Positions 4,601 through 54,576 of a stretch of DNA of 64,000 bases are shown in pieces. The DNA is from Schmidtea polychroa. Its lineage: Eukaryota. Where the stretch lies: positions 5,582,001 through 5,646,000 of the forward strand of contig CM097885.1 in NCBI GenBank assembly GCA_044892525.1. Reading direction: 5' to 3'. The notes below the pieces were generated by a model that saw nothing but the letters and a program-made list of their open reading frames with translations, was not told the origin of the DNA and made no database searches. Positions within the stretch are counted from its first letter, which is position 1. Each line of letters starts with the position of its first letter. Both the position numbers and the translations under genes were made by a program.

Positions 4601-5863
4601 CTTAAATGATCGAACAAATGTCGGCTACTTCAGCCAGCATTACGTCGACCATTTGGAACTGGATAAATCAGCAATTGAAATTATGCAGATCCGAGTTCCC
4701 AACTGCAAACTCGAAACTTATCAAAGTCATTTGTTGAAATTCGGAATCACAAGTGAAGATTGGAACATTCCGGTCAGATGTTTATCATCGGGACAAAAGT
4801 CAAGAGTAGCTTTCTCCACTATTTACATGCAGAAGCCTAACTTTTTGATTTTCGATGAACCGACAAGTCATTTGGATAAAGATGGAACTGAAGCTTTAGA
4901 AGATGCTTTGAGGAAATTCAAAGGAGGAGTTATTGTTGTTACTCATGATGGAAGGATGATGTCAAATGTTTGCAAGGATTTGTGGTACATCCAGAACAGA
5001 ACTGTCAGCGTTGTTGAGGACGGCTGTATGATATAAATAAATGTTTCCATAAATAATTTTGCTTTTTATTTTATTCCTCAAATTTTATACACAAATTTAG
5101 AAAAACGTCATTCTATTAAGTATCCAAATAATTAGATGTTATAATCGATAACAAGCGATAACTAGACCGATAACCAATTGGACAAGAGCTAGCTAGGCCA
5201 ATAACCAATTGGACAAGAGCTAACTAGAGTGACATCTATTTTATGAGAATACCATAAGGTTATAATCACGATTTCTTTCAATATCACTGACAAGTTTAAA
5301 TTTTGTTTTAATATTTATTTAAATAAATTAATAAAAGTAATATTCGAAATGAAACCTTTCTGAATAAACCTCGTGTTTTCAGTCGATGGATATGGATAAT
5401 TCCTAATGGAGATCTTTCAAAAGAAGCACTAAATATCTTCATTTTAGTTTTAGATATCAAAGATTCAAAACCTTTGAATCAAAGGATTTTGTAATCAAAT
5501 TAGCTTTTCAACGTCATATTGTTGATATTTCAGAGGAGCCAAAGAATCTACAAATAGAGTCAATAGAGCTCTGAATTGATGATATTGTAATTTCAATATT
5601 TAATTTGAAAAAGGATCCTATTGAAATTTGTGTCCAAATGTTTGTGAACATGCTTGATAAATGCCTTCATGATTTGTTTTCATTTCCATTACATCATTAT
5701 GTAAATCCCTTTTCGATAGTTTACATCAACATTTCCCAAACATTATATCCGTACTCTCTAAAAACAATGAATCTTTCCTCAGACTCCGTATAAAAAAACC
5801 ATAAATAATATATATTATTTATTAATAATTGTTTACTATGTTTAACAGAATATTAATGAGAAA
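1700..5863 (+). repeat. Left arm of a large inverted duplication
   Basis: Reverse complement of 10397-14026. Mirrored ORF coordinates sum to 16260 (3417+12843, 5036+11224, 5605+10655). Contains an extra local duplication (~2520-2800 repeated at ~3065-3350) that the right arm lacks. Confidence 0.95.
3417..5036 (+). CDS. ABC-F family ATPase (two ABC domains, no transmembrane domain), intronless, copy 1
   Basis: 539-aa ORF. Domain 1: Walker A GSNGSGKS, signature LSGGWRMKISLA, Walker B LLLLDEPTN, ISHD. Domain 2: GDNGCGKT, YFSQH, LSSGQKSRVAF, LIFDEPTSHLD, VTHD. Confidence 0.92.
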   Translation: MPPKFLTKSERKTLEEEQDQQLISCIKLSHNFVNKTEDQSAPMKSFALENLNMTILEKVLLKDSTITIEHGKRYGLIGSNGSGKSILFKAIQMGLFDFPKDYTIGIVEEECLADGTKVVECFVGKDEVEDFMVRFADVKSRAVNKKNKDVEVPKLVKILDGMGFTAEKMNEHVGNLSGGWRMKISLATVLMAEPDLLLLDEPTNMLDDRTIKWLSGFLKEWKTNLFFISHDGGFLSNVATDLLSIENKTVVHYACKYYEWLRNQELDRDKVRNQIQEQKAQKAELMEYIKKFEKTKKKEVAAKRQQIKKMPVIDESILEPREIWRFPACLKIKCATIETNEMGFSFGHAKEIFRNITLRVQPDSKICILGDNGCGKTTLLKIFMKILKPTNGNMFLNDRTNVGYFSQHYVDHLELDKSAIEIMQIRVPNCKLETYQSHLLKFGITSEDWNIPVRCLSSGQKSRVAFSTIYMQKPNFLIFDEPTSHLDKDGTEALEDALRKFKGGVIVVTHDGRMMSNVCKDLWYIQNRTVSVVEDGCMI

Positions 5864-6134: not shown

Positions 6135-8078
6135 TCAAAATTTATGCTTTCTAATGTAATTTGCCATCTTTGAGCATTCGAAACCCTTTTTCCCAAACTT
6201 GTAGTTATCATACGCCACTCCAAGATTTTCCAGTTTGGTAAACATTTGAACGTGTTTCACGGGGGGTAAATATCCTACAACGTTGCATTCCCGACAATTG
6301 CCAGGTTCAATGCCATGATTCGGCAGTTGGGTAGATGTTGGTGAATAAATCTGGAACCAGCACTGAAAATAGAAATTAATTAATTAAATTAAATAATAAT
6401 AAAATGTGTATGCATTCATGTAGTAAAACATTTGATTTCATTCATTTACAACTTACTGCTGCCAGATGTGTAATTGTGTAATTGTGTAAGTGTGTTTATA
6501 TTAATTTGGTGAGCCTAGCATGATATGAGCTTTCTCATTGGCCTGATTTGTAAGATATCAAATGTATTTATATATGATAAGTGACACAATTAAGATATTT
6601 GATAGAACTGGGTGGTCATTCGGCCAAGTTTCTGCACCTTAGAGTAAGATCCAAAGTGACTGTTATATATAATATTAATAAAAATCTAATAAGCTAGAAA
6701 TAAGTATTCCATATTTGGATCACAATTTAATTATTTTGATATTTACTAGTATATATAATATATATAACCTCGATTATTCTATCTATGGTGCTATGATGGA
6801 GTATGAATAGAGGATCATTTGATGCTGTTGATGCACAACACATTGATCCTTCGACCATATTGTGTACTTTGTTGTGCATATAAAGAGAAGTACTTTTATC
6901 CTCATTTCTCCCACAAAACCCTTCTAACGCCAAATGAAAAGCCCTACAGTTTCCCATATAATTTATCTTTTCATCTTTCACAAAATATCTGTCAAAAATA
7001 ACTCAATTTCTAAAAGGAATCAAATGATAAAATGTTACGAGCTGTGTCGGAGGACAAATTGTAGATCTTCCGTCAAAGGAAATTCCGTGGACATATATCG
7101 ACGGTTAAGAGGTGGGAACCTTTGTCTAAAGTGACACCCGACGCATTTGGAATTTCCCATTGGTGGGGAGCAGTACTCAGTCCAATTGTGAAACTGACTT
7201 CCTTTGTCGATCAGCCAGATTTGATTTATATAGTCGAATTTCCCTGTTGCACCGACATATCGATTATTGCAGACCTGGTTGAAATTATTCCGTCAAATAT
7301 TTGTAATACTGTAAAAAAACATTACTTCACACGTTTTAGCATCAAGCCAATCCCAATAAGGAATTGCAAAGTCCTTCCATTGAAACTCCTTCATTGCGAT
7401 TTTTGCTAGTTCCCTTTCCCAGTGCAACATCAAAGCTCGGTGCCAAGTAGCAAAGGAGACCGTGTTGTGATTGTAATCAAGATATCCGAAAGTTGAACAC
7501 ATTTGTCTGTTACCGAACAAAGTAGACCGGCTCGCATACCGATGAATAAAGGCAATAAATTCCTGAAAAGTCGCGTAGAGAAATATCGGGTTAACAAGAG
7601 GATCGGAATATTCTGGGCTTGATTCTTTCAAAACCAGAAATTCGCTGGGAATTTTATTACTTATCTCAAGAATACGCAAAAATCTCTTGCGTTCAAGATC
7701 TGAAAATGAAAAAATATTTCTTCGTATTTTGATAACTCGCTTGTCACAATTCTTTCCTTCCCAACCGTACCAACAGCTTTCACATGCGATTCCAAAGAAA
7801 TTTCCTTCACAATTGCACATTCGTTTAAAGAAACGCGTTGGCCAGTGCATTCTATCATCGTCTTTGAACACCCTTGCAATTGGTTCCCAGTGAGTATATA
7901 CTTTATCACAAACCCCTCTACCTACACCACCACAAGGCTTTTGAAATCCTTCCGGTATGGGACAACAAGTTTTGAGAGTTGAAGAAACGTTATGAACACA
8001 AACTTTTGGAACTAATCCTGAGATTGAATTGGTGATAATGGATCCGACTGTGAAGATTAACAGAATGGAGAGAGTCAT
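6135..8078 (-). CDS. Tyrosinase (type-3 copper phenol oxidase), 4 exons: 8078-7326, 7274-7039, 6988-6769, 6362-6135
   Basis: Signal peptide and Cys-rich EGF-like region (CNCEGNFFGIACESC). CuA region H...YNHN.VSFATWHR followed by PYWDW. CuB region HNKVHNM...NDPLFILHHSTIDR. GT-AG introns of 51, 50 and 406 bp join in frame; the protein ends ...RKHKF*. Confidence 0.93.
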
Positions 8079-8284
8079 TCCTTCTGAACATGCAAGAAAC
8101 TAGTGTAGAATTATCGCGATCTTTAGACGTACAATAACACGTTTCGGTAAGAGATTATATTCCGGTGATATCTGTATGAAATACATGCAAATGATTACCG
8201 CAAATCTAAATTGTTTTACTGATATTGCAAATTCGTGCCAAAATTGTTTTTTGTTTAAGACATAATTTCATTTAGGAATAAAAT

Positions 8285-10396: not shown

Positions 10397-13300
10397 TTTC
10401 TCATTAATATTCTGTTAAACATAGTAAACAATTATTAATAAATAATATATATTATTTATGGTTTTTTTATACGGAGTCTGAGGAAAGATTCATTGTTTTT
10501 AGAGAGTACGGATATAATGTTTGGGAAATGTTGATGTAAACTATCGAAAAGGGATTTACATAATGATGTAATGGAAATGAAAACAAATCATGAAGGCATT
10601 TATCAAGCATGTTCACAAACATTTGGACACAAATTTCAATAGGATCCTTTTTCAAATTAAATATTGAAATTACAATATCATCAATTCAGAGCTCTATTGA
10701 CTCTATTTGTAGATTCTTTGGCTCCTCTGAAATATCAACAATATGACGTTGAAAAGCTAATTTGATTACAAAATCCTTTGATTCAAAGGTTTTGAATCTT
10801 TGATATCTAAAACTAAAATGAAGATATTTAGTGCTTCTTTTGAAAGATCTCCATTAGGAATTATCCATATCCATCGACTGAAAACACGAGGTTTATTCAG
10901 AAAGGTTTCATTTCGAATATTACTTTTATTAATTTATTTAAATAAATATTAAAACAAAATTTAAACTTGTCAGTGATATTGAAAGAAATCGTGATTATAA
11001 CCTTATGGTATTCTCATAAAATAGATGTCACTCTAGTTAGCTCTTATCCAATTGGTTATTGGCCTAGCTAGCTCTTGTCCAATTGGTTATCGGTCTAGTT
11101 ATCGCTTGTTATCGATTATAACATCTAATTATTTGGATACTTAATAGAATGACGTTTTTCTAAATTTGTGTATAAAATTTGAGGAATAAAATAAAAAGCA
11201 AAATTATTTATGGAAACATTTATTTATATCATACAGCCGTCCTCAACAACGCTGACAGTTCTGTTCTGGATGTACCACAAATCCTTGCAAACATTTGACA
11301 TCATCCTTCCATCATGAGTAACAACAATAACTCCTCCTTTGAATTTCCTCAAAGCATCTTCTAAAGCTTCAGTTCCATCTTTATCCAAATGACTTGTCGG
11401 TTCATCGAAAATCAAAAAGTTAGGCTTCTGCATGTAAATAGTGGAGAAAGCTACTCTTGACTTTTGTCCCGATGATAAACATCTGACCGGAATGTTCCAA
11501 TCTTCACTTGTGATTCCGAATTTCAACAAATGACTTTGATAAGTTTCGAGTTTGCAGTTGGGAACTCGGATCTGCATAATTTCAATTGCTGATTTATCCA
11601 GTTCCAAATGGTCGACGTAATGCTGGCTGAAGTAGCCGACATTTGTTCGATCATTTAAGAACATGTTTCCATTGGTGGGTTTGAGGATTTTCATGAAGAT
11701 CTTCAATAGAGTAGTTTTACCGCAACCGTTGTCTCCGAGGATGCAGATTTTAGAATCGGGTTGAACGCGTAATGTGATGTTTCTAAATATTTCTTTAGCG
11801 GGACCAAAACTGAATCCCATTTCATTCGTTTCAATTGTAGCGCACTTGATTTTCAAGCAAGCGGGAAATCTCCAGATTTCTCTCGGTTCTAGAATGCTTT
11901 CATCAATGACGGGCATCTTTTTTATTTGTTGTCTTTTAGCAGCGACTTCTTTCTTTTTTGTCTTTTCGAACTTTTTTATGTATTCCATCAATTCAGCTTT
12001 CTGTGCCTTTTGTTCTTGGATTTGATTTCTAACTTTATCTCTGTCGAGTTCTTGATTCCTCAACCATTCGTAGTATTTGCAAGCATAATGTACGACAGTT
12101 TTATTTTCAATCGATAACAAATCCGTTGCAACGTTAGATAAAAAGCCTCCGTCATGAGAAATGAAAAATAAATTCGTCTTCCATTCTTTCAAAAATCCCG
12201 ACAGCCATTTGATAGTTCTATCGTCCAACATGTTAGTAGGTTCATCTAAAAGTAAAAGATCTGGTTCAGCCATCAGAACAGTTGCCAAACTAATCTTCAT
12301 TCTCCAACCACCAGATAAATTACCAACGTGCTCATTCATCTTTTCAGCAGTAAATCCCATTCCATCTAATATTTTCACGAGTTTTGGTACTTCAACATCT
12401 TTGTTCTTCTTGTTGACAGCTCTGCTTTTCACGTCAGCAAATCTCACCATGAAATCTTCAACTTCATCTTTACCAACAAAGCATTCGACAACTTTAGTTC
12501 CATCAGCAAGACATTCTTCTTCGACAATTCCGATTGTGTAATCCTTTGGAAAGTCGAATAAGCCCATTTGAATGGCTTTGAATAGGATAGATTTACCGGA
12601 TCCATTGCTACCAATAAGACCATATCTTTTCCCATGTTCAATTGTGATAGTTGAATCTTTGAGCAAAACCTTTTCAAGGATCGTCATGTTCAAATTTTCA
12701 AGTGCAAATGATTTCATTGGTGCGCTTTGATCTTCGGTTTTGTTGACAAAATTATGGGACAATTTGATGCAACTGATCAATTGTTGATCTTGTTCTTCTT
12801 CCAATGTTTTCCTTTCGGATTTTGTAAGAAATTTCGGAGGCATTTTTGAGAGGATGTCAAATGTTAAATATGAAATAAGAATTAAATATATTCAAACAAA
12901 TATTTTCAAATTTTCTCATATTTAAAATAATTTATAAAAATAAAATTTAAATTAATTAATATTTATTAATAATTTAATCTCGACTTTTTATATGTAAATA
13001 TTTAAAGTTTTTTCAATATTATTCAAAAATATATAATAAAATATATTAATGATTTAATCTCGATTTTGTTTTTTTTTAAATTAATATTATATTTATATTT
13101 AAATATTTTATCAATTTATTTTAAAAATATATTATTTAATAATAATATTTATATTTTTATAATATTATTTATAATTGTGACCAAGAATTATTCGGGCCAG
13201 CATTTTAATAAATTATAATTCCAAATCTCACTTGGTATAAAATTATATTGAAATTTTATTTTTATAATAATTTTAATAATTTAAATTTTAAATAAAATAT

Positions 13301-14026
13301 TTTTTAGAAAGAGTTTATAAATATATGCATGTAAAAATAAAATGATTATGAAATTAAAAATCTTAAATATATTCAATAAATATTATTTATATTTAATCTA
13401 TTATAAGAACATTTTGCCATTTTCACCACTCATTTCTTTTCAATTGACATTGTATTTATTAAAAAGCTTGACTATGAAGCAGTAAATGGTTTTTAAAATT
13501 ATTTTATTGTTTATAAAACTATTTAAATTTATAATTTATTATAATATTTATAATAATTTTTATAGTAATATTTATAATAAATACATTTCATTAGAAAGTG
13601 CTGATTACAATTAGTCATCATACTTATATATTGTCATTATTTGATATGCCATTGGTTTTGTAATGAACATGATTATTTTATATGTTAAATAATGAAAATT
13701 AGTGAATGAAAGATCGAAACAAAAAATGATGAGATAATCAGTAAAACATTTATCAATTTGTAATGATCAAAATGACATTTATCAGATTTATGTAATTTTG
13801 GACAAATCTTATTATGAATATTTATTTATAATATTTATTTTTATAAACTTTTGGGCAGTTCATTATCACAATAATGTCAACTGTGTAATATTTTTGTCTT
13901 AATGAAGTGACTGTTTGAATGAACAAATGAGAGTGAGGTAATTATGAGAAAGTAAAGCCAGAGTAAGCAATTGAGAGTGGGCAAAAGCCTTAATGGTAAA
14001 GTACAAACTGACAATTTGAGAGTTAA
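10397..14026 (-). repeat. Right arm of the large inverted duplication
   Basis: Reverse complement of 1700-5863. Outer end ...TTGAGAGTTAA mirrors TTAACTCTCAG at 1700. Confidence 0.95.
11224..12843 (-). CDS. ABC-F family ATPase, intronless, copy 2
   Basis: 539 aa; the only protein difference I can see from copy 1 is FSFGPAKE versus FSFGHAKE. Confidence 0.92.
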   Translation of the reverse strand: MPPKFLTKSERKTLEEEQDQQLISCIKLSHNFVNKTEDQSAPMKSFALENLNMTILEKVLLKDSTITIEHGKRYGLIGSNGSGKSILFKAIQMGLFDFPKDYTIGIVEEECLADGTKVVECFVGKDEVEDFMVRFADVKSRAVNKKNKDVEVPKLVKILDGMGFTAEKMNEHVGNLSGGWRMKISLATVLMAEPDLLLLDEPTNMLDDRTIKWLSGFLKEWKTNLFFISHDGGFLSNVATDLLSIENKTVVHYACKYYEWLRNQELDRDKVRNQIQEQKAQKAELMEYIKKFEKTKKKEVAAKRQQIKKMPVIDESILEPREIWRFPACLKIKCATIETNEMGFSFGPAKEIFRNITLRVQPDSKICILGDNGCGKTTLLKIFMKILKPTNGNMFLNDRTNVGYFSQHYVDHLELDKSAIEIMQIRVPNCKLETYQSHLLKFGITSEDWNIPVRCLSSGQKSRVAFSTIYMQKPNFLIFDEPTSHLDKDGTEALEDALRKFKGGVIVVTHDGRMMSNVCKDLWYIQNRTVSVVEDGCMI

Positions 14027-15639: not shown

Positions 15640-15900
15640 TGGATTATCATCAGTAAGGATTCTGTCTGCCATGAGATAAGCTAAGTAGAAACCTATTACA
15701 AATTATCTCATTATTGAAATATCATCTCTAGCAGGAAGTGCTCTCATGAATACCTTAGTTCCAGATCTAGCGATTGTTCTCAATTTGTTGATCAAATCTG
15801 CATTTGTCATTCCGATTCCAGTGTCAATAATATTTAAAGCTCTAGCATCTTTATAGGAAATAATTTTATTTCCACAACACAATTTAATTTCAATAAACAA
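15640..15900 (-). pseudogene. HSP90: HSP90 N-terminal ATPase domain fragment
   Basis: [32 protein letters not shown]...DISIMR*FVIGFYLAYLMADR matches the Hsp90 motif DTGIGMTKADL.NNLGTIA.SGTK.FMEAL...GQFGVGFYSAYLVAD, with an in-frame stop. No further HSP90 sequence seen nearby. Confidence 0.88.
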
Positions 15901-16420
15901 AGGAAACATCTTCAATGACAATCGATATTATTAATTCCAAAAGACGAATTCAAAATAATCTATAAAATTCAAAATTCAATAATAAATCACCAAGAAAGAT
16001 TCGAAAATAATCCAGAAGACATGCGCACACAGACGCGAAAGAATCAATTATAATAATATTTCAAACAAAAACTCGCACACAGACACGAAAACAACTCCAG
16101 TCAAAATCAGATCGGTCGAAACAATACGGATAATTCCAACATAAAAAAGGAGAGAGAATTAGAAAGACAATTATAGAATAAAGGTAACTACTGTTATCCG
16201 ATTGTACAAAGTCCTGATATTTGGTGATCCACAGTTGAATTTATTTATTGCATACATTATCAGATCATTTGTGAAATATTTGATTTATTCAATATGCGTT
16301 GAGAGTTTTGTTATTTATTGAATTATCACAACTTTATTGAATATTAATTATGAAAATGATTTAATCAATTATATTGGTTGTGAATTAAAACAAAATTATT
16401 AATATTATTTAAAAGTTAAG

Positions 16421-17389: not shown

Positions 17390-18385
17390 GGATGATAATA
17401 ATGACAACAATGACAACAATGACAGTAATGACAGCAATGACAATAAAGACATAAATGTCAGCAATGACAGCAATAATAACAAGGACAGTAATGACAGCAA
17501 TGACAATAATGACAAAAATGTCAGCAATGACAGCAGTATCAGCAATGACAGCAGTGTCAGCAATGACAGCAGTGTTAGCAATGACAGCAGTGTCAGTATG
17601 ATAACAATGACAGCAATGACAAAAATGACAGCAATGTCAGCATGATAACAATGACAGCAATGACAAAAATGACAGCAATGACAGCAATAATGACAATGAC
17701 AGTAATGACAGCAATGGCAATAATGACAAAAATGTCAGCAATGACAGCAGTGTCAGCATGATAACAATGACAGCAATGACAAAAATGTCAGCAATGACAA
17801 AAATGTCAGCAATGACAAAAATGTCAGCAATGACAGTAATTACAAAAATGACAGCAATGTCAGCAATGACAGCAATGACAATAATGACAAAAATGTCAGC
17901 AATGACAGCAGTGTCAGCATGATAACAATGACAGCAATGACAAAAATGTCAGCAATGACAGTAATTACAGCAATGACAGTAATTACAGCAATGACAGTAA
18001 TTACAGCAATGACAGTAATTACAAAAATGACAGCAATGTCAGCAATGACAGCAATGACAATAATGACAAAAATGTCAGCAATGACAGCAGTGTCAGCATG
18101 ATAACAATGACAGCAATGACAAAAATGACAGCAATTTCAGCATGACAACAATGACAGCAATGACAGCAATAATGACAATGACAGTAATGACAGCAATGAC
18201 AATAATGACAAAAATGTCAGCAATGACAGCAGTGTCAGCATGATAACAATGACAGCAATGACAAAAATGTCAGCAATGACAGTAATTACAGCAATGACAG
18301 TAATTACAAAAATGACAGCAATGTCAGCAATGACAGTAGTGTCAGCAATGATAACAATGATAGCAATGACATCAATGACAATAAC
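17390..18385. repeat. Minisatellite of degenerate 9-bp units (CAATGACAG) with higher-order blocks
   Basis: About 1 kb of AATGACAGC / AATGTCAGC / AATGACAAA variants. Confidence 0.95.
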
Positions 18386-19630: not shown

Positions 19631-20167
19631 AATAAAATATTTCTCTCAGAAATACAATGCACATTTTGGGCAAAAATGTTAACTATTTAGGGAAAATGTA
19701 TTTTTTGTAATTAATATTAATAATTGATAAGTTGCATTAATTCCCCTTTTTTTATTCTTTGACTTTTTTGTTAAATTTCTTGATAATTCTCAACAAAAAC
19801 AAATGAATGATAAAATAACAAACCTGTATGTGCTTGGTATAGAATTTTTTTTATTGAATTAGGAGTGTAATTTATGCGACTGCCCAACTCAGATTTGTTT
19901 TCTAAAAATAGTAAATACACATATAAATACCCTGAAACAAAAAGTATCAATGCGCAATACCCCCCTCTCTTTAAAAAAAGATGGCATTTTTTCCATCATT
20001 TAAAATTTCATTATCATTATCATTATTATTATTGTATTTATTAAAAAGCTTGATTATGAATCAGTAAATATATCGATGATTTTTTGATATATTTACTGAT
20101 TCATAGTAAAGCTTTTTAATAAATACAATGTCAATTGAAAAGAAATCAGTGGTGAAATTTGAAAAAA

Positions 20168-20325
<158 letters not shown>

Positions 20326-20821
20326 CATTTTTATTATTAACTATTGTAATTTTTAGTAAAATATTTCATATATTTACATAATGAAACAAATAAATAACAA
20401 ACAACCTTGATGCCCCCAGAGAAAGAAAAATTGTAAAGAAAATATTAACAAAAATAATAAAAGCTTGAGCATCTAAATAAAATTATTATAATCGTTTTTC
20501 ATTGTCATTTGTTGACTTTATTCTGAAAATAATTTGTACATTTTGTATCAACTGTGACTGTAATTTTGTTACCCTCGGGGTGAAATTCTATACAGCAATA
20601 TTGATACAAATTTTATTAGATTACAATTCACAGTATTGTCTGAAATGACAGTTAATTGTCAAAGAATTATTATTTTTTTCATTATGGCAAGTTTACATAT
20701 TTTTTCTGTGACCAAGCTAATTTGCAATTGATGTGATTTCCAGTGTACCAGGAAAAGTATGCAATAAAGTTGAATCAGCAATGTTGTATACTTACCTGGC
20801 GCGAAGAGAAATCTTCGTGTC

Positions 20822-20874
20822 TCCTGCATAGTACTGATGAGAGCCAAAAGCTCGAAACTAGTCTACTATTGGGA
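20822..20874 (+). ncRNA. Minimal type I hammerhead ribozyme
   Basis: ATAGTA (stem I) - CTGATGA (core) - GAGC CAAAA GCTC (stem II) - GAAA (core) - C TA G TC (short stem III, palindromic ACTAGT, GUC cleavage triplet at 20861-20863) - TACTAT (stem I'). TCCT/GGGA extends stem I past an internal loop. Confidence 0.85.
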
Positions 20875-23800
20875 TTTGCACTGGGTTTAACAAAGTTTGT
20901 ACTGTTTATAATATATATTAAAGCTCCATAGGTTTTGGTGAAAATGGCATTGCAAATACATAGGTACCTTTATTTGATGTACAAAGCTACGTATGTATTT
21001 GCAATGTATATCCTGAATTGAAAATCTTGTTCATAGTTACTGTTAAAAATTATTTTTTTTATCAAATCTATTTTGAGATTTGATTGTTCATTATTGTTTA
21101 AAAATATGAAAATTAGTTTGGTAAATCAAATTATTTTAAATGAGCATTTAATTTAATATTAATTTTAATTAATTAAGTATAAATAAGATATAAAATTAAA
21201 ACATAGACATTGTATTTAATGAAACCTTAACTATAAAGATATCGTTTTTTTGATATTCACTAATTTTCGGCAGTGCATTTTTCAAGTGATTTTAAAATAT
21301 AATTTTTTTTTAAATTTTTTTTTAAATTTAAAAATATTTTTTGTTAATTAATATTGATTTGAAGCTTATCAAGAACTCCAAAACCAAATTTGAACTGGTC
21401 TCCTTCATACGTATTGGAATTAATCAGTTGGAATGACATCTAGTAATTAAGAGCAAATATATGGGCAGATACAGTAAGTAAATGTTATGGTGGTAAATGC
21501 CACCGGCAGTGCCGAAAGGGTTGAACATATGTTAAATTCTACAATTCATTGCGCATTGTATCAAAATTAAAATTATTTAACCATTAAATACAAGCGTATA
21601 TGAAACAGACGGATTTAAATGCATGATGGGACAAAAATAATCTGAAAAAGGCACACTGGTATTCTAAATATTCTAAATACTTGATGCTGTAATCTAATAT
21701 TTATGTAATTTCTATAACATATCTATTACATCATTTCCAAATTCGATCTGCTATAAGGATAAAAATGTGTCTACTGACCGATGCATACATACTTATTAGT
21801 GGCGTGTAGTCAGGACCACGGGACAAATGCAAATACATCCAGTTCTATTCACATTCATTAAAATGATTAATGTTAACACAAATTTGAGGTAATTGCACGT
21901 TGGTCTATTTTCTATGCTACTGCAAAAAATGTCACGTGAATTCGACACTGGTAACATCTATAACTTCTTCAAGGTATTCACAACGTTTTTAAACTTTTTA
22001 ATTCTCTTGAATGTCTTGGCTTTTTCTTTCTAAAACCAACTTTCGCTTTTTTAAATAATAAATAGAAAACATTTATCTGTCGAAAACTAAATTAAAATAT
22101 TTTTATTTGTCAATTCCTGTTACCTCCTTCCTTCCTCCGTTTTATTTCTTGGTATACGAGTCGCTCAAGTATTTTTTATATATTGAAAATGTTTGTTGAT
22201 TTGGTTCATTTTTTAAGGACTGTAATTCTTGAATTACCAAATTTACAATCTTAGTTTAAATGATCTGTCAAGTGATAATACAAGTTTAATATTTGACATA
22301 GAGGCCTTAATGAATATCAGAAAGGATATTTGAGATTCTACAATTACATAAATGACTTTGAGTGGTTTGGTGGGGTCAATATAAAGCCGTCGCATACGAT
22401 TTCATGAGTATATTAAATGAAAAATATTTTTTATTTAATTTTATGCCTCATTGGTAATTTTAGTGAATCTCTAGGTCAAAGTAAGGAGTATTTTATTAGA
22501 AAACTAAATCAAAAATTTACCCATATTTATAATTAAATCTATTTACAGGTTTTAATAAACATCTGTTTAATATTATAAAAAAATTCATCAAAATATATAT
22601 TATAAATATTTATATTTTTAATTTAATTTAATTTTTATTTTAGGACCTATAATTGTTTTTAAAAGTTATTTTTATTAAATGATTATTTTATTCTAAAAAT
22701 TGAAAAAATAAAAACAAAATTTGGTTAGATAAACTAAAACGTCATTTAAACAAAAATGAAATATATTTCAATGACATTGTCTTCATTATCATCAATCACC
22801 CGTGAAATGAATGAAGCAATCTAATTATGACTCAAATCAAATAAATATCTTCAATTACTGTATTTTGATTGGATATGTTTCAATTGGGATTGACACACAA
22901 TCACCAATACCTCACATAAAATCTTTCCTAATAATTATCAACATTTATCTGTAACAAATTTTCTCAATGTTGCATGATAGTTTCTAAACTCTAGGGAAGA
23001 GATGTCCTAAAATATCTAATGTATATAAGTTAAGGTGACCAGATTAAGTTAAGGCCACTGCAAAACTAGTCCACGATGTAGAATTGCACCCACTAAGAGT
23101 TTTCCTCTGCATCTGACTGAATTGTAATAGAATTTTTTATTTTGGGCTTCTGCTAAAGATAAAATTTCAAGCATTTAAGCTTTTTCAATGAAACAATCAA
23201 GGAATAGGATCTAGATTAGTTGACACGTTCTAATCCACCGGTGGTATTTTTCTGACTTAGATCTTCCAGATTCTCATTTATCTCGTTCATTATACGATTC
23301 CATTAAAGATGCAGTCTGTAAACTCTGCTTGAAGGGGTCCTTTGAGAAGAAAGACGGAGGCTTATAAAGAGGAAGAGTTAGAATTCAAATTGTGCATACT
23401 TGACTAAAGATTTTGTTATAAAAATGAATTTTTTACTATTTTGCCATCGAAGTCGCAACAAACATTCCAAACAACCCGGTAGGTGGGAAAGTTATATAAA
23501 TGAGGGTTATAAATTAATAATTTTCCGATTTAAATCATTTATTAGATGGCAGCTGCAAATTAACTCCCCAAGATTTTGTTGATAAGAAGGATGACGAGGT
23601 GTTTATTGCTGAAGATTATTTTAGATTTAATTTGGATAATAAAACTTTGATGCTTTTGTTTACACAGGTAAGATTTTTTTAAATGTATTAATGATTTGGC
23701 TAAGTGCGAACTGGGAGGGGAGGTTGTGGAGTCAGGATAATTAGTTTCCTACTCCGACTGCAGATCCATGTCCGAAATTAATCATAAATTATTAAATTTT

Positions 23801-27270: not shown

Positions 27271-27789
27271 AATGGCAGTTTATTTATTTCAATAGAAAAT
27301 TTATATTTTTCTTTGGGACAATAATGTTGATGAAAAATCAAAAAGATGTTTAGTGTGTCCTATAAATGGTAGAGTAGATTATAACGAATCGTATGAGCTA
27401 TAAATCTTTAAAATCCATTGAGAATTTTGATGAGAAATCAAAAGAATTAAAATACTTTTATTGAAGTAAAAACGTTAGTAAAGGGGTAAGTTTGAAGTTT
27501 GCCTCTTACAGCTGTCAATATTGATTTTAGTTACCAAACGTTTGTTATCTTTTATTTTCAACTAATATGGCAAATTTAGTCAAGTTTGTTTTCGTTTATA
27601 TAGAGCTACTGCAACATGTATAAATCATATCAATTATGTTTCCAATATTTCGTCTAAATAAGGACAATAAATCTTAAATTTTTTGACACCGCCTAACTAG
27701 TCGTTATTATGCATGTCAGGATCCGGAATTTCATTTTCATACTGAAATGAAATTATGCCAATTATGCCAATGCCAATTGATCTTATCAC

Positions 27790-28431
27790 GACCGATCTTG
27801 GTACGATCCTGGTGATCAACCAACAACATCAATTCGTCGATGTTTGACAGCACAAAAGCACTTTGCAACTATTTGTTGGGATGTGAAAGGAATTCTCCTG
27901 TGTAATGTATTTCATCAAGGAAAAAACATAAACGCAGAAATTTACTGCGCTCAGTTGGATAAACTCGTAGATGCGATTCGAGAAACAAGGCGCCGGTTGA
28001 GTAGAAACAGTTTTGAAAGGTTCCATTTCCTTCATTATAATGCTCAACCGCATACGAAAAGTTTAACTCAAAATAAACTTGTTGAGATCGGTTGTACGGT
28101 AATACGCATCAACCATACTCCCCAGACCTTGCCCTTTTAGACTATTACCTGTGTTCTCCTATGAAAACTCACTTCGTAAGAAAACGTATCACTTCGTCGA
28201 AGAGGTTAACGGTGATTTGGAAAAAATGGTTTGCTTCAAAACCTGCGGAATTTTTTGAAAGCGGCATAAAATAACTTCCAGAATGCTAGCGTAAAAATGT
28301 GGATCTTAAAGGTGATTTCAGATTTACAGAATTGTTCACAGTTTTGTTTATATTTCCAAATTAACTTATTGACTTTATTGGTTAAATAAATATTATTTTC
28401 TATCGGATAAGACTTTCGTTCCAATCTTATA
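27790..28431 (+). mobile_element. Degenerate mariner element (transposase catalytic region and right TIR)
   Basis: ICWDVKGIL...INAEIYCAQLDKL...FLHYNAQPH, then a frameshift to HQPYSPDLA.LDYYL (mariner YSPDLAP motif). Right end ACTTTCGTTCCAATCTTATA. Confidence 0.85.
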
Positions 28432-29770: not shown

Positions 29771-31813
29771 CGTATTCCGACAATCCGCCAACACGACAAT
29801 CCAGCAAGTACGACAATTCGCCAAACGACAATCCGCCAAATGACAATCCGCCAACACTAAAAAATTGGCCAACGCTGACATTTATAAAAAAAATATTTGT
29901 AGGTCATCATATTAAAATTAATTCACATGTACTTGTACAACAAATTTGCCTAAATAATCATTCAAATAAAAGCATTAAAATCAAATCAGTATCATTGCGA
30001 CATGTTGAATGTGAGTAGTACTCTTGTGAGCAATACCCATAGGGGGTCAAAACATCTTGTCGGATAAACTCAGAGTATATATAATAAAACGAATTAACTC
30101 ATTCAAATTTATCTTTGAATCAGTCAAATTATCACAAATTTTGATAAAAAATCTTGTTTACCTCTCAGCCAGTTAAATTGTTTAAATATTTAATTAAAAT
30201 TTTATATTAAACCAGGGGTTCTTAACCTTTTTTACATCATACCTCACCTAATATTTAATTTGATGTTCTCACCTCCAGCAGAATTATTTTTTTTAAGAAA
30301 AGATAAGAAACATAATTAGTGGTATACCAACATTACATATATTATTTTATTTTCACCATTTTAATATATTTATAAAAAAAATTATATTTAATTCATACTG
30401 TGATATAAAAAATTATATTTTATATTTAATTCATATTGAAAAAATTTATTTAAAGTTTAAAGATAGAAAATATGTGAAAAATTTAAAGAATAATTCCCAA
30501 ATTCAAAGAATATTTTTTATATAAATACTACAAAATAATAAGGCAGCATTAATGAGATGATTGTTGCTGCTTGTCGTCAATAAGATGCGAAATTCGCGGA
30601 ACAATCTTAGACAATGCTAAGCGCATGTCATGCCTGGCATCCAATCGATTTCTGGTTTTCGGCTTTACATTGACCAATGTTGAAAATGCAGATTCGCAGA
30701 GGTATGTTGTTGCAAATGGTATCAAAGCTGAAAGAGCTTTATTTGCCAAAACCGGATAAGAATCTATTTGTGAGCACCAAAATTCATCAAGATTTTGGTT
30801 GATAAATTTTTGCCTGACCATAGCCTTGCTCTGTAAATCAATGAGGTCGTCTTTTTGCATGTCAGCATCATCCAAGGAGTCTAAATTAAATATGAAGGGA
30901 TTTCGAATCCACTGATCAATTTTCAAATTGTTTTCTACAAAGTAGTTATCAAAAGAATTCATGAGATTATCCAAATGTATTAAAATATCAGTTCGAATCC
31001 AATCTGGCACCGCTTTTAATAAATATTCAGCACAGAAAATTTTTTCTAGAGATGGGAAATTTGCATAATTACCTTTTGATACGCGGTTCTTCCAAAGAGC
31101 TAGTTTTTGCTTGAAGGCTGTAATCTTCTCATTTGCATCTAAAATAGTAACTTCTGACCCTTGAAGGGAAATATTTAGATCATTTAAATGTGAAAATACA
31201 TCTGCAAGATAGGCCAATGATGCAGTAAAATTGTGAGTTTCAAACTCTCCACACAATTTATTTTCTTTCTCTCGAAGAAATGTTATTATCTCCATTTTGA
31301 GTTCCAGGACACGAGTGAAAACTCGTCCACGTGAAATCCAGCGTACATCAGTGTGATAAAGCAGCATTTCATGAGAAGCTCCAACTTCTTGGCATAATAT
31401 TTTGAAGAGTCTGTGATTCAAAGCTCGAGATCGGAAGAAATTTACAGCTTGGACAGTGATATCCATGGCAGACTTGAGTCTTTGTGGAAGAGTTCGTGAT
31501 GCCAATGCATGGCGATGTAAAAAACAATGCAGAACCATAACATTTGGAGCCCTCGCTCGTACCAATGCTCCAAAACCAGAATTTTTCCCTAATAATTAAA
31601 CAATTACTAGTTGATTCTTATCTTTCAGCGGAGAATTTATTATTAAAATTTTAAAAATATAATAAATTTAAAATGTATGTATGTTAAAACAAAAATTTAT
31701 CGACTTTTTGGCAGATTGTCGCTTTGAACTATTTGGCGGATTGTCATTTGGCGAATTGTCGTTTGGCGGATTGTCGCCAGCCTATTAATGATTTGGCGGA
31801 TTGTCGTACAACC
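29771..31813. mobile_element. MULE/Mutator-like non-autonomous element with repeat-rich TIRs, carrying nested fragments
   Basis: GACAATCCGCCAA repeats at the left end are inverted as TTGGCGGATTGTC repeats at the right end. 9-bp TSD AATTTGAAC at 29762-29770 and 31814-31822. Confidence 0.8.
30213..31592 (-). mobile_element. 5'-truncated hAT Buster/Charlie element (ZBED8/SCAND3-like transposase, C-terminal half; ORF 30549-31565)
   Basis: Motifs HCFLHRHALAS, LLYHTDVRWISRG, LAYLADVF, FATTYLCESAFS and ...QQQSSH*. One TIR CAGGGGTTCTTAACC at 30213. Confidence 0.9.
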
Positions 31814-33664: not shown

Positions 33665-36600
33665 ATGTCACAGACACATCATTCGATATTTGAAGATCAA
33701 GCCAAGGAACTGTATTTTCTCTGTGATGAGGAGAAAAAAGGATTTATTACCAAGGAAGACATGTATCGACTAACTGACCATTTACCGTTGAATAAAGAAC
33801 AATTCGAATCGGTTTTTGATTCTTTGGATGATGATAATAATGGAAATTTGACATTGGAAGAATTCATAGTCGGTTTCAGTATGGACGATTCTAAAGGATA
33901 TGACATTTTATCCCAGTTGTCTAGGTAAATTCTTAGGAGCACCGGTCGAAATTCCCCACGATGATGATTTGGAATTCGAAGATGAGGGATCATCCCTTCA
34001 CCATGTGGCCCAGGAGCATTTGGAACATCTTATAGAAAAAATGAAAATTGTTGGATTAACCGAAGAGTAAGTTTCTTGAATTAAAGAGACATTTAAAATT
34101 TAGTAATACTTGTATGATATTTCAATTAATTTCCCCATTCTTAAAATATTATATAATACGTGGGACTACAGGTATATACAATAGGTTCTTGGGGGAGGGG
34201 CTTTCAGTGTTGATTTCCTACAACAATAATTATCACACGTGTTCCTTATATTTTGTTAATCCTGGCTAATATTCGCGCCTCCCAGTTTAGGAAACACTGA
34301 ACTAGAGCTAAGAAAAGCACTTGCACTTAATACTTTCGCTACGGGGCGCTTTTGCATAATTTGTGTCTCAGTATGGCATGCAAACGGCCGTGTGGATTTA
34401 CACGGTTTTAGTGGTTTAGTTTCATTTGTTAAATAATTTATTTTATGTATTTACATGGTAAATTATAAAAATGATACGCAAACACGTAATAATATGAATA
34501 ATAAATATCATAAAATATGCTTGTTTGTGTGGTATATTTCAAAACATTGTTGACGAACAAGATGAAACATGCCAGCGGGTCGGTACAAATAATGAATACT
34601 CGTAAATCAATATTTCACATGTTTATAACAATTTTATTAGTCTGTATCATAATTAGAATACATCGGATTCGTTTGGTTCCCGTAACAAGTAATAAAATTT
34701 TGCTTTCGTATTTATCCGACTCTCGTATTGCGGCTTCGTGCGGTTCCCGTGGCGAGAGGGTTAACCAATTAGATGTAACTCAAGTACACTCATACCTCGC
34801 TTTACGGCCTAGATACGTTCCAGGAAAGTTGGCCGCAAAGCGAAACGCCGCATAACGAATCAAATATTTTGATACAATTCCATACACTTTCACATACACA
34901 ATTCACACTTTTTTTGGCCGTATAACGAAACATTTTAGGCCGTAAATCGAAAAAGTGCCGTTATTTATTTCATAGGAGTTTGTGAAAAAAGAATTAAATT
35001 TATTTGTTAAATTATGGACATTTTTGTGCAAGCATTTACCGGAAATTAAAACTTTAAAATTTCTTATTCATGAAAAACGGACACGAAAGCATGGGATAAT
35101 AATATTGTTATATTAATAAATAACTTATCCATTTTGCACTCACGCGTTTACCTATTGCAGGAACCATGTTTATTTACGAATGGACCTTTGCTGTTAGTAT
35201 AAATAATTAATAATATAATAATTGAGACGGGGAAGAGAGAAGTTGATCTGATCAATTGCTATCATGATCCACCCAATCAAGGCATTTTATGTATCGGAAA
35301 TTAAAGAAATAAGGATAACTTACCCACTGCCAACCGTATTACTAATGAATCAAATGTTGCTTTTTCATAATTTGAATTCATTAAATTACCAATAAAATTT
35401 TAGATTATTTAACTTATATTTTAGCATTGACAATATAAAAGAAACTTGGAATCAGTTGCAGAACAGCAATGCCGAATTACTGAGCCATTTCGAAACTTTG
35501 ATAGAAACCATCATATCAGACATGCACAAAACTAAAAATGAATACAGTACATTGGAGGGGGTGCTGAAAAAGTAAATTATATAATACTTTATCCATTTAT
35601 GTATTTAAGCAAATCGAACATTTACGACGAGGAAATGAAACGACTATATGACGAAATGGATCTTCAAATAAAAGCGGAAAAAGAACGGATCTTGAACGAA
35701 GTTAATTTCACATGAACTTTAATTTGCTATATTCATAAGTCCTTAGGAAAAGAAACGAGAAAAAGAAATTAAAGATAATTTAGAAATAGAAATACGTGAA
35801 AAAGATAAACTGTATCAGGAAATTTTAAAAGATCATGACAAAGTAAATTTTAACCACGATTATTAATTATTCACCTTTTCTAGACAGCTAAAGAACTGCA
35901 AAGCTTAAGTGACATTCATTCAGAATCAAGTCAAGAGCGTGAAAGATTAGAAAAAGAAAAAAATGAACTAGAAAATAAACTCAGAGCAACTGACAAATCT
36001 CTCCGAGACTGCCAAGAATACATCGATGAACTTAACAAAAAATCAAAACAGGATCGGAGAAATCGAGCTAGAGCCGCAATCGAAATGACAGAAGGCATAG
36101 CTTTAGAACGTGAAAGCTTGGTTCGTCAACTTGATGAATTAAGGTACCAATCACTAATTGTGGCCCTAAAGAGGGCCATTAAAACATTCACAAAATTATT
36201 TAACTAGATTCTTTTGGTGTCTTTTTCGGTAACAAAATGGCTTGAATATTCGGTAAAACACCACCTTGAGCAATTGTAACTCCTCCAAGAAGCTTATTCA
36301 ATTCTTCATCGTTTCGAATGGCCAATTGCAAATGACGGGGAATAATCCTAGTTTTCTTATTATCTCTAGCCGCATTACCCGCCAATTCCAAAACTTCAGC
36401 TGCTAAATATTCGAGAACTGCAGCCAAATACACAGGTGCTCCAGAACCAATGCGTTCAGCATAGTTTCCCTTACGTAGTTTTCGATGTATACGACCTACT
36501 GGGAACTGTAACCCTGCCCTTGAACTTCGAGTTTTAGCTTTAGTTCGCGTTTTGCCTCCACTTTTTCCTCGTCCACTCATAATTATAATTAGTGTTTAGA

Positions 36601-39600
36601 TACATAATCATGTTGTACTTCGGTTATATACTTAAATAATTACTATACATTTTTTTGGAATTATTACGTTGTGGTTGTTTCAAATTTTTTACGTTGCAGT
36701 ATTACAAAATTTCCAAATTAAAATTAATATCTTTATAAATAAATATTGCTTATTCATTCAGAGAAATAAATAAACAGTTACAAGAAGAAAAAGCTAGAAA
36801 ATTAGAAAAATCCAATTTTTTATCTTCAAATGGCTCTATGGATCTTTATAAAGAATTATCAATGGCACAGGAACAAAGTGAGCCAAAAGTAATCGATGTG
36901 GCAGATTTAAAGAAAAAGCGTGGGTCAATTTTAAGCAGCTATTTTATACCTAAGTAATCACAATTTAATGTATAAGTTTTGTGATTTTTATTAGAATAAG
37001 TGTCGATCAAGTGACGCGGGAACGTTGCCAAAGCATTACATATGATGATGAAGATGTGTTAACCGATTTAGGAGTTTCATACAACGATTTCAGTTATGAT
37101 TCAATAAGAGTCGAAAATAGTATTATAAGTAGTCATAATCCGATTCAATCAACAAGTGTAGTACTTTCTCCGTCTTATCAAGAAATGGAAATTCAAACTA
37201 TAATTGACGATGAGTTTATATATTAAATTATATAAATGTATTAATGCTATATAGAGAAAATCTTGGTGAGAGATCTCCTCCTGATGGAGCGGTGGAAGAA
37301 GTTGATATTATAGTAATTTCTTAGTTCTTGATAATTTAAAATGCGATAATGTTTAATATACAAATTGTGCACAATTTTTGCAAGTCAAAGTTTTTACAAA
37401 TTTTTACAAATCCAGATATTTATTATCATTCTGCTATAAATTCGCACTTCATTTTAGACAAATTTGAAAAACTGCAGTTGTAAGGCTAAAATTTTATGTA
37501 AGATGTAATATTTAAAAAAAATTGTTATTTATAAATACTAATAAATATATCGACGTTCCTTCCAATTTATTGATTTCTATAATGTCAATCATTTAATTAT
37601 AGCAGAGGAAATTGAATAACATTTCTGTTATATGGATTTTAAAGAAATATTTTTAATTTATTCAACTGAAATGCAATGTGGAACAACATTTTATGAAGCA
37701 TGTACAAATTAGAAATACAAAGCTCTAATTAACACTGGCCTCCATTTAGAATGAATGTGACAGAAATATAATTCAACAGAAAAGCTTCTTATTTAAATAT
37801 AAGCATTTTAAGATTATAATATTACGACATTTTTGCTTTAGTTTCATCGGCACATTACCCCATCCACCTTATTGTATTATATCAAATTAATAAATCAATT
37901 TTATTTTAATATATGATTATTCACAATTTAATTTACAAAGAGTGCCCATCAACATTTGCTCAAGATCTTGATTTGATTACAGCAATCAGGCCATACAGTA
38001 CAACTTCCTCCACTATCCACCAAAAGAACGTATGGAATAAAATTTGAATATCAACAATACTTGATTTCCAAAATATATATTTTATTTATATTAAATATTT
38101 ATTAATAGTGTAATAAGGGGGAATAAACTGCATAAGTACCTATTCATCTTGAGCAGGGGTGGGCAAAAGTAGGCCCGTTGAAAAATCCCACATGCAATTT
38201 TTTAATCTCATGCGATTTTGTTGAAATCAACAGTATTAGTGTGCGTAGTGTACATATAAATAATGGACAGTATTATAATTTTGAACAGCCGTAACCATAC
38301 TACTTTAATGTATAAAACATACTCACAAAGCGCGTGGTTGGCTGACTACATAAAATTGAACGTGTGCTCATCTCAGTCTTCGAGGGATGACAGGTCACAT
38401 TACGCGTACTGTTTACACCTAACTGCGAAAGTTACCATATTTATTATAGGAATCTAAAAAGTGAGAAAATAATTAAGCATACAAACAGCACACATAATGA
38501 AAAATACATACAAACTTAATAAAGTGTTTTTTTGCGAAATTAACATTGATTAACATATAATTAACATCAATATTTTCAAATTATTTAAAAAGTTATGCAC
38601 AAAAAAACTTTTGAATCAGATTCCGACTGCTCTACCTTGAGTTTTAGAGAAAAAGAAGAAAATACATCGTAAGATTTAATTATATAATAATTAAGAATAT
38701 AAAATTTCTTTAAATTTACAAATTTTGAAGAAGGTCCTTCGATATCTTTGAATTTGCAGGAAAAAATCGTAAATTTTAATAAATTATTTTAACAAATTAA
38801 TATTTTCATAGAATTACAGAAATAGACAAAATTCGAAAGATTACAAAAACTTAAAAATATATTTTATCCATTCTTTCCTAAATGTCTTAAAAAATAAATG
38901 TTTGGTGAATACTTTATTTATTTATAATTATAAAAATATCTAACTTACATTTTTACGAAATAAATCCAAATAAGTCCAAATAAAATATCATAAAATTCCT
39001 AAAAAACACCTGAAATTTAATTATGAATGTTATATTATAAATGCTGACTAGCAATAATATTAAGAACTTGAATAATGATCTCATAATTATATAAAATCAA
39101 AATTCAAGCCCTAAAAATTACTTAAATTCAAAAACTTACCTTAAAAAGATTTTTGAAAAATTGAAAAAATGAAATTAAGTTAACATTGTCATATAATTGG
39201 TGACTCACCTCAGCTGGTGTGCACACCAACGTATATTATAAACAATGTTAACTTTCGCAGTTAGGTGTATTTTGATTTAGCACTGATCACATACTCGTCG
39301 TCATTTCTTTTAAGATCACGTTTCCCATTTACTATAAGTATTCTATTTTAACGTTTGATGTTTGTCTTTTCTTTTTAAAATTCTATTTACTATTATATTT
39401 ACAAAATGCAATATAAACATAAAAATTTAATAACTATGTATCAATATTAAATGTTTTGTAGCGTTAAGATATAAATAAATAACAAAATAAAATCTGTCAT
39501 TAACTGTTTTATTTAATGATCATTAATTTAAAATAATGCATCATATTTCTTTAAAAATTACGTGACATTTTACTGGCAAAAATTGTTCGCATGTACACCC

Positions 39601-52737: not shown

Positions 52738-54576
52738 AATTTAACAACAATTTCTGATTTTAATAAAATATCAGAATATTTAAACGAAAATGAGAAAAAA
52801 TCGAAATATATTTCAAGGAAATGATTCTCATCATTATTCTGCCATCTCAATCATTGTCAAATACTATATACGGAAACGATTTGTTTTATGATGTAATCTG
52901 GGGATTGAAATATGCTGGGTAGTCCGATATTGGATAAGGTTGCATTTCAACAGTAGTTAATGTTTTGCAGAATCTACTCTTCCCTTCATATTTAATGATA
53001 ATTGGTAGCAACTGGTTGATGATATCACTGCGGGGTCTCCTTGTGTTGATTTACCGATTTTCTTACAAAGTTAGAGAATAAGAGTTCTAACTTTCTATAA
53101 AGTCTTAGATATATGAAGGTAAATTGATGGTATGCTAAAACATTAATTAAAATAATGGATAAATGAAATGAAAATATGTGCCTACTAATATAAAACAAAA
53201 TTTAAGTTTAAAAGCTAATTAAACTTACTTTTAATTGAAAAGAATTTGAGAGACAAATAAATTCATAAATTGAATGAAACTAACTGACTATAACTCCCTA
53301 ACGCCGAGGCTAAAGATAATCGTGCGAAACAAACGTGGATATAAAAGAAAACCAAATCAAATTGACTCAATTTATTAACAAAATATTATCCAAAGAATAA
53401 ACCAAGTGTCAAAAGGAAACAGAAGCCAAATAAACTTAAACTATCTTGCCAAGCAAATAAACTTAGAAACCAGAAAACAGAAATAAAGAAGTCGAAGAAT
53501 TTATAACGAAACATTTATAACATCGATCTCTCCCTCAACAATATAAAATTTAAGATCTCAGTACCAAAAGATTCTTCGCCAGTCTTATTTATCTATAAAA
53601 CTGTCTGACAACAATAAAAAAATATCAGAGGAAACTCAAACCGTGGAATTGTACGAAAGGCCAGGACATATTAGAAATATTAGAGATATTAATTCACCTG
53701 GATACAAAGAGATTCCTCGGCCATCTATTAGTGAGCAAAGGACTGATTGCAATATAAAGTGCGTATCTATTTTATTGTCTTTTTAAATAGAAGTTGTAAT
53801 TTTAAAGTATTGTTCTTTACACTCATTTGATTATTGTAATATTTTGTAACTTACATACATTCACCCCAGCTGTCCCGAGACAGTTTATTTACTGGTGACT
53901 CGACTGGGCTCTTCAAATCTCTATTACATACGCAATCCTACATCAATTATTCAAATAAAAAACAAATATAAACCAACGAATACTACAACAAACGTCAATA
54001 AAAACGATTATACTTACAAGTATATTTGTAATTACATAATCATATGCTCGGAATTCAATAAAATTTATTAATCTTTATAAAGTTAATTAAACACTTTCAC
54101 AATATAAGTTACCTAGATGATATTTTTCTGATATTTAACAGTAGGAAGTATGTTTTACCATAATTGAATTGTATGAATAATTTACATAGGAAATTAACTT
54201 GAAAATTTCGTTTTTTGATTTACTAATTGAAAAGGAAGAAAGGCATTTTGAAACATAAATTTATTAAAAATGTTTTTGCGAAACTAAATATAAAATAAAT
54301 ATGATAAATAGTTCGATCTATCGTTATTGTAAATTTATTAATAGAATACATCAATTGACTAAGCTACTTCATATTCAAAGTCATTATTATAGCGAATGAT
54401 ATATGAAACTGTTGATACTTCGCTTGCTGTACTTTCATTTAATAGGGAAAGTAATGTAATGGATATGATTGATGATGCTCAATTGAATAGCACTGATAGC
54501 AATAATGCTAAACCTGATAAAATAGGTTAAAGTGATTTGTTTACTTCTGCTGGTTCTATTATAGTTTCACTGTTTT

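Follow-up and report, generated by a model that had tools for sequence, protein, structure and literature searches.

A high-copy, retrozyme-like hammerhead repeat of Schmidtea polychroa with a stretch identical to the start of U1 snRNA

Hammerhead repeats are known from many animals, and the presence of such a ribozyme is in itself ordinary. The canonical animal type I hammerhead has been described as a 6-bp helix I, a 4-bp helix II and a palindromic helix III of 1–2 bp (Cervera and de la Pena, PMC4209133), and canonical type I motifs sit in self-paired repeats of 150–450 bp (PMC7229834). Solo monomers of retrozymes are described as common, dispersed and a known by-product, and eight of nine Xenopus retrozyme dimers that were tested did not cleave (bioRxiv 10.64898/2026.07.22.740005). 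The transcription of non-LTR retrozymes is barely addressed in the literature as represented by these two reports (PMC7229834; bioRxiv 10.64898/2026.07.22.740005), and the source of the promoter of U1-headed retroposons is a stated open question (PMC4494074).

The locus analyzed here lies in a 64,000-nucleotide stretch of S. polychroa DNA (referred to as the window), where a hammerhead motif at 20822–20874 had been singled out as a solo pseudo-LTR, a retrozyme monomer or a domesticated ribozyme. We conclude that the locus is probably a solo copy, and a truncated one, of a non-coding retroelement that is short, very abundant and of the non-LTR retrozyme type. The hammerhead repeat also contains a tip identical to the first 16 nt of a U1 snRNA.

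The hammerhead motif and its surroundings in the window

The following features of the motif were read from the sequence.

20822–20874, + strand: canonical type I hammerhead ribozyme, cleavage predicted between 20863 and 20864
20828–20833 and 20864–20869, + strand: stem I, 6 bp (AUAGUA/UACUAU)
20834–20840, + strand: hammerhead core CUGAUGA
20841–20853, + strand: stem II, 4 bp (GAGC/GCUC), with the loop CAAAA
20854–20857, + strand: hammerhead GAAA
20857–20862, + strand: palindrome ACUAGU containing stem III (2 bp, A-U and C-G, with a 2-nt loop)
20822–20825 and 20871–20874, + strand: distal helix of four pairs, lengthening stem I across a small internal loop

All core bases of the hammerhead are present at 20822–20874. 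The original prediction was accurate as to the core (CUGAUGA and GAAA), the 6-bp stem I, the 4-bp stem II and the short stem III with its palindrome, and the motif layout agrees with the cut that it placed after C20863. It had called the ribozyme "minimal"; since 20822–20874 corresponds to the canonical definition of PMC4209133, that label is wrong. A structure-aware hammerhead scan of both strands of the window matched this locus alone, and none of 60 simulated windows gave any match. The bare pattern CTGATGA..GAAA..TC was not significant, its three matches in the window being reached by 25 of 100 shuffles. An Rfam search, proposed earlier as a check, gave a full-length alignment with Hammerhead_HH9 (RF02275) that included the core and the extended helix I at 24.4 bits (E 0.001–0.005); this score is below the gathering score of 52, and the search at gathering level returned no match at the locus. 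The 53-nt motif folded alone was not significantly stable (z −1.73, with 13 of 200 shuffles as good). Pair probabilities in stems I and II were 0.93–1.0, except for the core-proximal pair of stem I (0.34). The lowest-energy monomer fold is an inactive form in which the start of the core pairs with stem III, and two ACUAGU palindromes could form a 6-bp duplex (−4.8 kcal/mol), as the dimer model requires. In sequence and structure, 20822–20874 is a real hammerhead of the canonical type I, for which cleavage is predicted.

No reverse transcriptase (RT) domain was found among the 18 ORFs of at least 120 aa that were scanned, of 22 listed in the window, in agreement with the earlier statement that no retroelement ORF adjoins the ribozyme. 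The Penelope remnant noted 34 kb away corresponds to a broken frame with a GIY-YIG-like pattern (54565–54924); this Penelope-like remnant has no Pfam match, and the Atlas placed it at 0.94 with a cluster in which 10% of the members carry GIY-YIG (Platyhelminthes the commonest phylum in two of five rows). We treat it as a lead that Penelope-like elements exist in the genome. The repeat described below as carrying the hammerhead is itself non-coding, with only short overlapping frames of 64–67 aa, and no RT plus GIY-YIG frame is present at the hammerhead locus, where the repeat is not itself a Penelope element.

Several other features of the window were recorded. A MITE-like inverted repeat (20031–20178) overlaps a piece that recurs at 2200–2302 and 13400–13502 (88–90% alike), and an (ATT)n run occupies 20168–20339. 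A 2,554-bp inverted duplication (3310–5863 and 10397–12950) has 100% identical arms, each with a 555-aa frame for a two-domain ABC ATPase, and either arose very recently or is an artefact of assembly; a tyrosinase-like frame (7293–8099) lies between its arms. The Rfam mir-753 hairpin has a second copy, 86% alike (61165–61226 and 39060–39147), and other shared repeats lie close by, pointing to an origin of the hairpin from a transposon; mir-753 is, we assume, a planarian microRNA family. Two abutting frames of 440 and 335 aa (43010–45340) had no Pfam match, and the 440-aa frame matched eukaryote clusters at 0.95 (commonest Arthropoda) with low recognition. A weak HSP90-like fragment (15703–15927), a DDE transposase remnant (27781–28274), two hAT-type or DUF4371 frames (30549–31595 and 46645–48063), a histone H2A frame (36200–36595), a Ras-family exon (40513–40893) and a 9-bp tandem array of about 110 copies (17400–18380) were also present.

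The high-copy repeat and its predicted fold

Contigs from four of 24 listed runs were aligned to 20401–21150; freshwater and sediment runs, which had small shares, were not among the four. Run X5 is DNA from a study other than that of the best-matching runs, and X10 comes from a second organism (organism B); none of the listed runs is recorded as RNA, which for X8 and X9 is a guess, and contigs cannot reveal RNA ends. Contig depth, loose ends and folding together delimit the following feature.

About 20688–20909, + strand: fragment (~222 bp) of a high-copy non-coding repeat, resembling a retrozyme unit

Contigs fitting the repeat numbered 3,620 in X5 (632 of them only partly), 296 in X8, 7 in X9 and 37 in organism B. 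The hammerhead therefore belongs to a multi-copy family that is shared with a second organism, and its earlier description as a single copy holds for the structure-aware scan of the window and fails for the genome. Summed X5 depth was 0.29–1.15 million over 20701–20900 against 61.6 on the left flank, a thousands-fold difference; summed depth is not a count of copies, and the overlap among short contigs could raise it about thirty-fold; we infer hundreds to thousands of copies. Coverage in X8, X9 and X10 was confined to 20676–20925. The repeat is low in GC, as is the window (about 29%). Within the window, no further copy of the fragment was found, nor any similarity to the remnant region near 54.6–54.9 kb.

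The junction between the left flank and the element is crossed by an X5 contig (record 9, 20401–20717, three differences), and it is thus no assembly artefact. On the right side, X5 coverage was absent over 20926–21025. An imperfect hairpin of ~60 nt lies just downstream of the element (20947–21009); it is single in the window, uncovered in X5, had sub-threshold microRNA-model matches only, and is possibly a small inverted-repeat insertion.

Loose ends of X5 contigs cluster at 20688–20703 and at 20909–10. The sequences before 20688–20703 agree with one another (0.56 in one of the four X5 rows and 0.74–0.79 in the other three), indicating that the family extends leftward. Those behind 20909/10 have median lengths of 130 and 131 nt and low agreement (0.52–0.57). 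In X9, record 28 (322 nt, depth 81.7) runs 163 nt past 20909, and records 25 and 26, which differ from each other (depth 30 and 64.5), extend further to the left, by 34 and 36 letters; together they make up a bubble that shares 30 nt with record 28. The repeat family thus runs beyond both ends of the window copy, which is a fragment. Contig geometry hints at a unit of ~380 nt, assuming that the unseen tail of record 28 returns to the bubble. Solo copies do exist, as the longest X5 pieces continue into other sequence for 561 and 1,370 nt. Tandem units were found neither in the window nor as a tandem junction in the contigs of the four runs, where the only joint that goes back is 108 nt long and at single-copy depth. 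No target-site duplication was detected around the copy, where the only direct repeat (7 nt) lies 100 nt outside the left end, an end that is not sharply defined, and the copy has no poly(A).

The predicted fold of the element is a four-way junction made up of a closing helix, hairpin A (20748–99), hairpin B and the hammerhead.

20723–20747, + strand: closing helix, 5' strand, pairing with 20877–20901; of its 25 positions, 18 pair as the window copy stands and 21 once the family-majority letters are put in
20877–20901, + strand: closing helix, 3' strand; majority letters at 20887 and 20889 restore Watson-Crick pairs
20800–20819, + strand: hairpin B, closed by a GAAA loop and situated between the U1-like tip and the ribozyme (from the fold)

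Six folds of 186–222 nt gave z scores of −4.9 to −6.8, and no shuffle of 100 was as good in any of them, whether linear or circular; the values were −4.86 for 20688–20909 and −6.8 for 20720–20905. The two-strand fold gave an uninformative duplex. Inside the element, 22 variant rows were recorded, 16 of them at paired sites, where 10 keep or restore the pair and 6 break it; three of the favourable ones (20728, 20887 and 20889) are majority letters that repair private mismatches of this copy and were scored in a hand-set helix register. The majority letters at 20887 and 20889 account for 99% of X5 depth and 100% in X10, and the majority variant at 20818 in hairpin B converts G-U to G-C. Among variants at paired sites with at least 5% of X5 depth, nine of ten keep or restore the pair. 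Pair-breaking variants, apart from that at 20748, are rare in X5, and those at 20747, 20759 and 20831 each come from one contig of organism B. In the unphased contigs, no two-sided compensatory change was demonstrable, and few variants are listed in the hammerhead core of the family. The element is predicted to fold as one self-paired RNA, and its common variants mostly keep the pairing.

These data bear on two other views of the locus. A domesticated ribozyme serving the host, one of the three readings first offered, would be consistent with the intact core and with the left junction being common to the sample of another study. However, the family is high-copy, the copy is truncated and differs from the family majority by private changes that break pairs (20728, 20887 and 20889), and no host gene is tied to the ribozyme; domestication is therefore extremely improbable and finds no support here. 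Of the readings first offered, the retrozyme monomer fits best, with the amendment that the copy is a fragment of a unit. The other view takes the repeat for a pseudo-LTR belonging to an autonomous Penelope-like element, the copy for a solo or truncated terminal repeat, and the ribozyme for a device that trims the element transcript. Pseudo-LTRs are described as carrying type I hammerheads (PMC4209133), 24 of 57 Xenopus retrozyme families match known elements, with 21 of 22 Penelope-like (bioRxiv 10.64898/2026.07.22.740005), the family goes on beyond both ends, and a GIY-YIG-like remnant is in the window. Pseudo-LTR hammerheads are, however, usually minimal and variable as described in PMC4209133, whereas the one found here is canonical with few listed core variants; the fragment is not similar to the remnant region, and long-range self-pairing across the ribozyme better suits a unit-length RNA. 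We regard the pseudo-LTR as unlikely.

The stretch identical to the 5' end of U1 snRNA

The original prediction had overlooked both the 222-bp folded unit and a 16-mer, 34 nt upstream of the hammerhead core, that is identical to the beginning of U1 snRNA.

20788–20803, + strand: 16 nt equal to the 5' end of U1 snRNA (the splice-site-reading arm and the start of the first helix), 16 of 16 with U1 gene L047
20748–20760, + strand: splice-donor-like arm masking the U1-like 12-mer, as the 5' arm of hairpin A, 20748–20799 (from the fold)

The U1 reference set consisted of 20 loci from genes contaminating prokaryote assemblies; 11 of them are distinct, and Rfam confirmed each of the 11 that were scanned. 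These loci (L035–L054) are animal-type U1 snRNA genes, some in tandem arrays, inside prokaryote genome bins, that is, host contamination. The prefix in common with the 11 distinct genes was 12–16 nt, the maximum being reached with L047; the first 12 nt of this identity were imposed by the search pattern, and the same 12 nt match the Rfam U1 consensus. None of 5,000 shuffles reached 16 nt and three reached 15, and one of 288 window tiles reached 16 nt, presumably the tile containing 20788–20803. Positions 20788–20799 are the only exact ATACTTACCTGG in the window. The identity starts exactly at U1 +1 and continues five bases beyond the donor-pairing arm. Beyond nt 16, nothing significant was found when the element was aligned over the whole length to each of the 11 U1s without their first 12 nt (p 0.25–0.81), the Rfam U1 model did not match the element at E up to 10, and no stem-loop I–IV or Sm site was detected. 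Resemblances to the U1 3' end (p 0.42) and to U1 loop II (p 0.06), both noticed after the fact, were rejected. Identity as a U1 snRNA gene was likewise rejected, as the 5' splice-site recognition arm alone is present, with stem-loops I–IV and the Sm site missing.

A family-specific core pattern had six matches, none with the U1 tip or the flanks, and a joint U1-plus-hammerhead pattern gave 18 matches in metagenome contigs, 2 in viral contigs and 14 in prokaryote genomes, none of the 34 with a 4-bp stem II, and these matches were set aside as chance. Type I hammerheads with a stable stem III and unrelated flanks were read by eye in two viral contigs (L058:601–624 and L060:601–625).

In the fold of the whole unit, 10 of the 11 positions 20788–98 are paired with a probability of 0.87–1.0. 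If the RNA instead started at 20788, its six leading bases would be largely unpaired (pairing probability 0.02–0.16) and the following five partly paired (0.52–0.98). No variant is listed for 20784–20817 in the four runs, and the partner arm has four variable sites (20748, 20750, 20753 and 20759), numbers too small to prove a constraint on the tip.

An exposed start of this kind is what a U1-headed, SINE-like cassette would produce, in which an internal snRNA-type promoter starts a capped RNA at 20788 with its U1 guide exposed and the ribozyme processes or destroys that RNA. The identity beginning precisely at +1 and the predicted exposure of the first six bases point in this direction, as do two of seven X9 contigs that join unrelated sequence just before 20787 and the snRNA-type promoter of newt satellite 2 (PMC2220036, citing Coats 1994). 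However, the element lacks the CACC motif that 6 of the 11 fetched non-host U1 genes carry at −58 to −61, and the base before +1 is T where all 11 fetched U1 genes have C, with the caveat that schistosome snRNA promoters are reported to be highly derived (PMC2770079). Furthermore, the part upstream of the tip is as deep in X9 as the part downstream, hairpin A pairs straight across +1, and neither an Sm site nor any other U1 part was detected. A depth step at 20767–20778 was not counted as evidence of a start site, because mismatches of this copy could cause it. Such a cassette, which would be compatible with the retrozyme-type origin favoured above, seems quite improbable.

The 16-mer may also be viewed from the other strand, where it reads as a perfect 5' splice donor (CAG/GTAAGTAT). 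It would then derive not from U1 but from a minus-strand donor, or would simply complement the plus-strand donor-like arm, as a relic of an intron-bearing ancestor, the repeat otherwise being as we propose. The partner arm is indeed donor-like, the window holds two other 9-nt donor-type matches, and Penelope introns are reported to end at helix I (PMC4209133), with an acceptor-like TAG ending at 20831 here. Nevertheless, the identity runs five bases past the donor-pairing arm, no listed joint in X8 or X9 on either strand has GT..AG ends at the donor-like sites, and the plus-strand arm has GG, not GT, in most copies (79% of X5 depth). As an explanation of the 16-mer taken alone, a donor relic is possible and less favoured; as an account of the entire locus, it is very improbable. 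We lean towards capture of the tip from U1 RNA.

Proposed cycle, meaning and comparison with known systems

For the retrozyme-type element that we favour, a cycle can be proposed by analogy with the retrozymes of coral, mussel and axolotl (PMC7229834). Master copies would be transcribed as multimers, from which the hammerheads would cut out unit-length RNAs of perhaps about 380 nt; a host ligase may circularise these units, and a Penelope-type reverse transcriptase may copy the circles back into AT-rich DNA. The captured U1 tip would then be paired off by hairpin A, keeping an abundant RNA from competing for splice sites. The window copy has one ribozyme and only part of the unit, and by the same analogy it could cut a passing transcript but could not release a unit or make a circle; it is probably a dead end. 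In a more tentative and rather unlikely reading, the family could be a circular-RNA retroelement into which the start of a U1 snRNA gene has been captured. Since the unit RNA would be excised and closed into a circle, the snRNA promoter, normally external, would travel inside it, and new transcripts would begin with an exposed U1 guide, hidden again by the donor mimic once the unit is closed. If this tentative reading were true, the family would represent a naturally occurring chimera of U1 and hammerhead, present in very many copies, that could titrate splice sites or exploit them for targeting.

The U1 +1 sequence inside the unit offers a sharp test of retrozyme transcription and of the promoters of U1-headed retroposons. 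Splicing in planarians, animals with good RNAi and RNA resources, could be affected by an abundant RNA that combines a perfect splice-site guide with an arm masking it. If the 16-mer were a donor relic, the finding would reduce to one more hammerhead repeat of a known family type. A U1-identical tip inside a hammerhead repeat was not found in the papers searched on hammerhead ribozymes, U1 snRNA, SINEs and Penelope-like elements; further surveys or Repbase may list the family.

Among described systems, the minimal hammerheads of Penelope-like pseudo-LTRs share the type I topology, the palindromic stem III and a proposed action as dimers (PMC4209133), whereas the present motif has full helices I and II plus an extension, and no RT/GIY-YIG frame adjoins it. 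Schistosome Sm-alpha and Sj-alpha (PMC2770079, PMC2220036) are also flatworm elements, SINE-like, with type I hammerheads that have tertiary contacts and hammerhead hits numbering in the tens of thousands; they are reported to have an internal Pol III promoter, and the present repeat is likened to them by description, not by sequence. SINEU (Kojima 2015, PMC4494074) is a short retroposon with a U1-derived 5' part, the transcription of which is posed there as an open question. However, as described in that report it is restricted to crocodilians, has a poly(A) tail, is mobilised by Tx1 and has no ribozyme; here, just 16 nt match U1, they lie inside the unit, and at least 100 nt of family sequence precede them. 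Identity with SINEU was rejected, the copy having no snRNA head at its 5' end and no poly(A) tail.

The closest likeness is to metazoan non-LTR retrozymes (PMC7229834; bioRxiv 10.64898/2026.07.22.740005), with which the repeat shares a canonical type I motif, lack of coding capacity, low GC, multiple copies, self-pairing and solo copies beside longer units, and to which it is likely to belong. Retrozymes have tandem units, circles and, in some cases, target duplications, whereas the present family is known from a solo fragment and contigs alone; the main texts of the two reports mention neither planarians nor an snRNA-derived part. Newt satellite 2 (PMC2220036, PMC6155905, PMC7229834) resembles the repeat as a hammerhead repeat with a weak stem III, an extended helix I and a link to snRNA-gene transcription. 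In the accounts cited, the newt repeat has an snRNA-type promoter and no U1 RNA sequence is mentioned, whereas in the planarian repeat the tip of U1 RNA itself is present and the promoter is putative.
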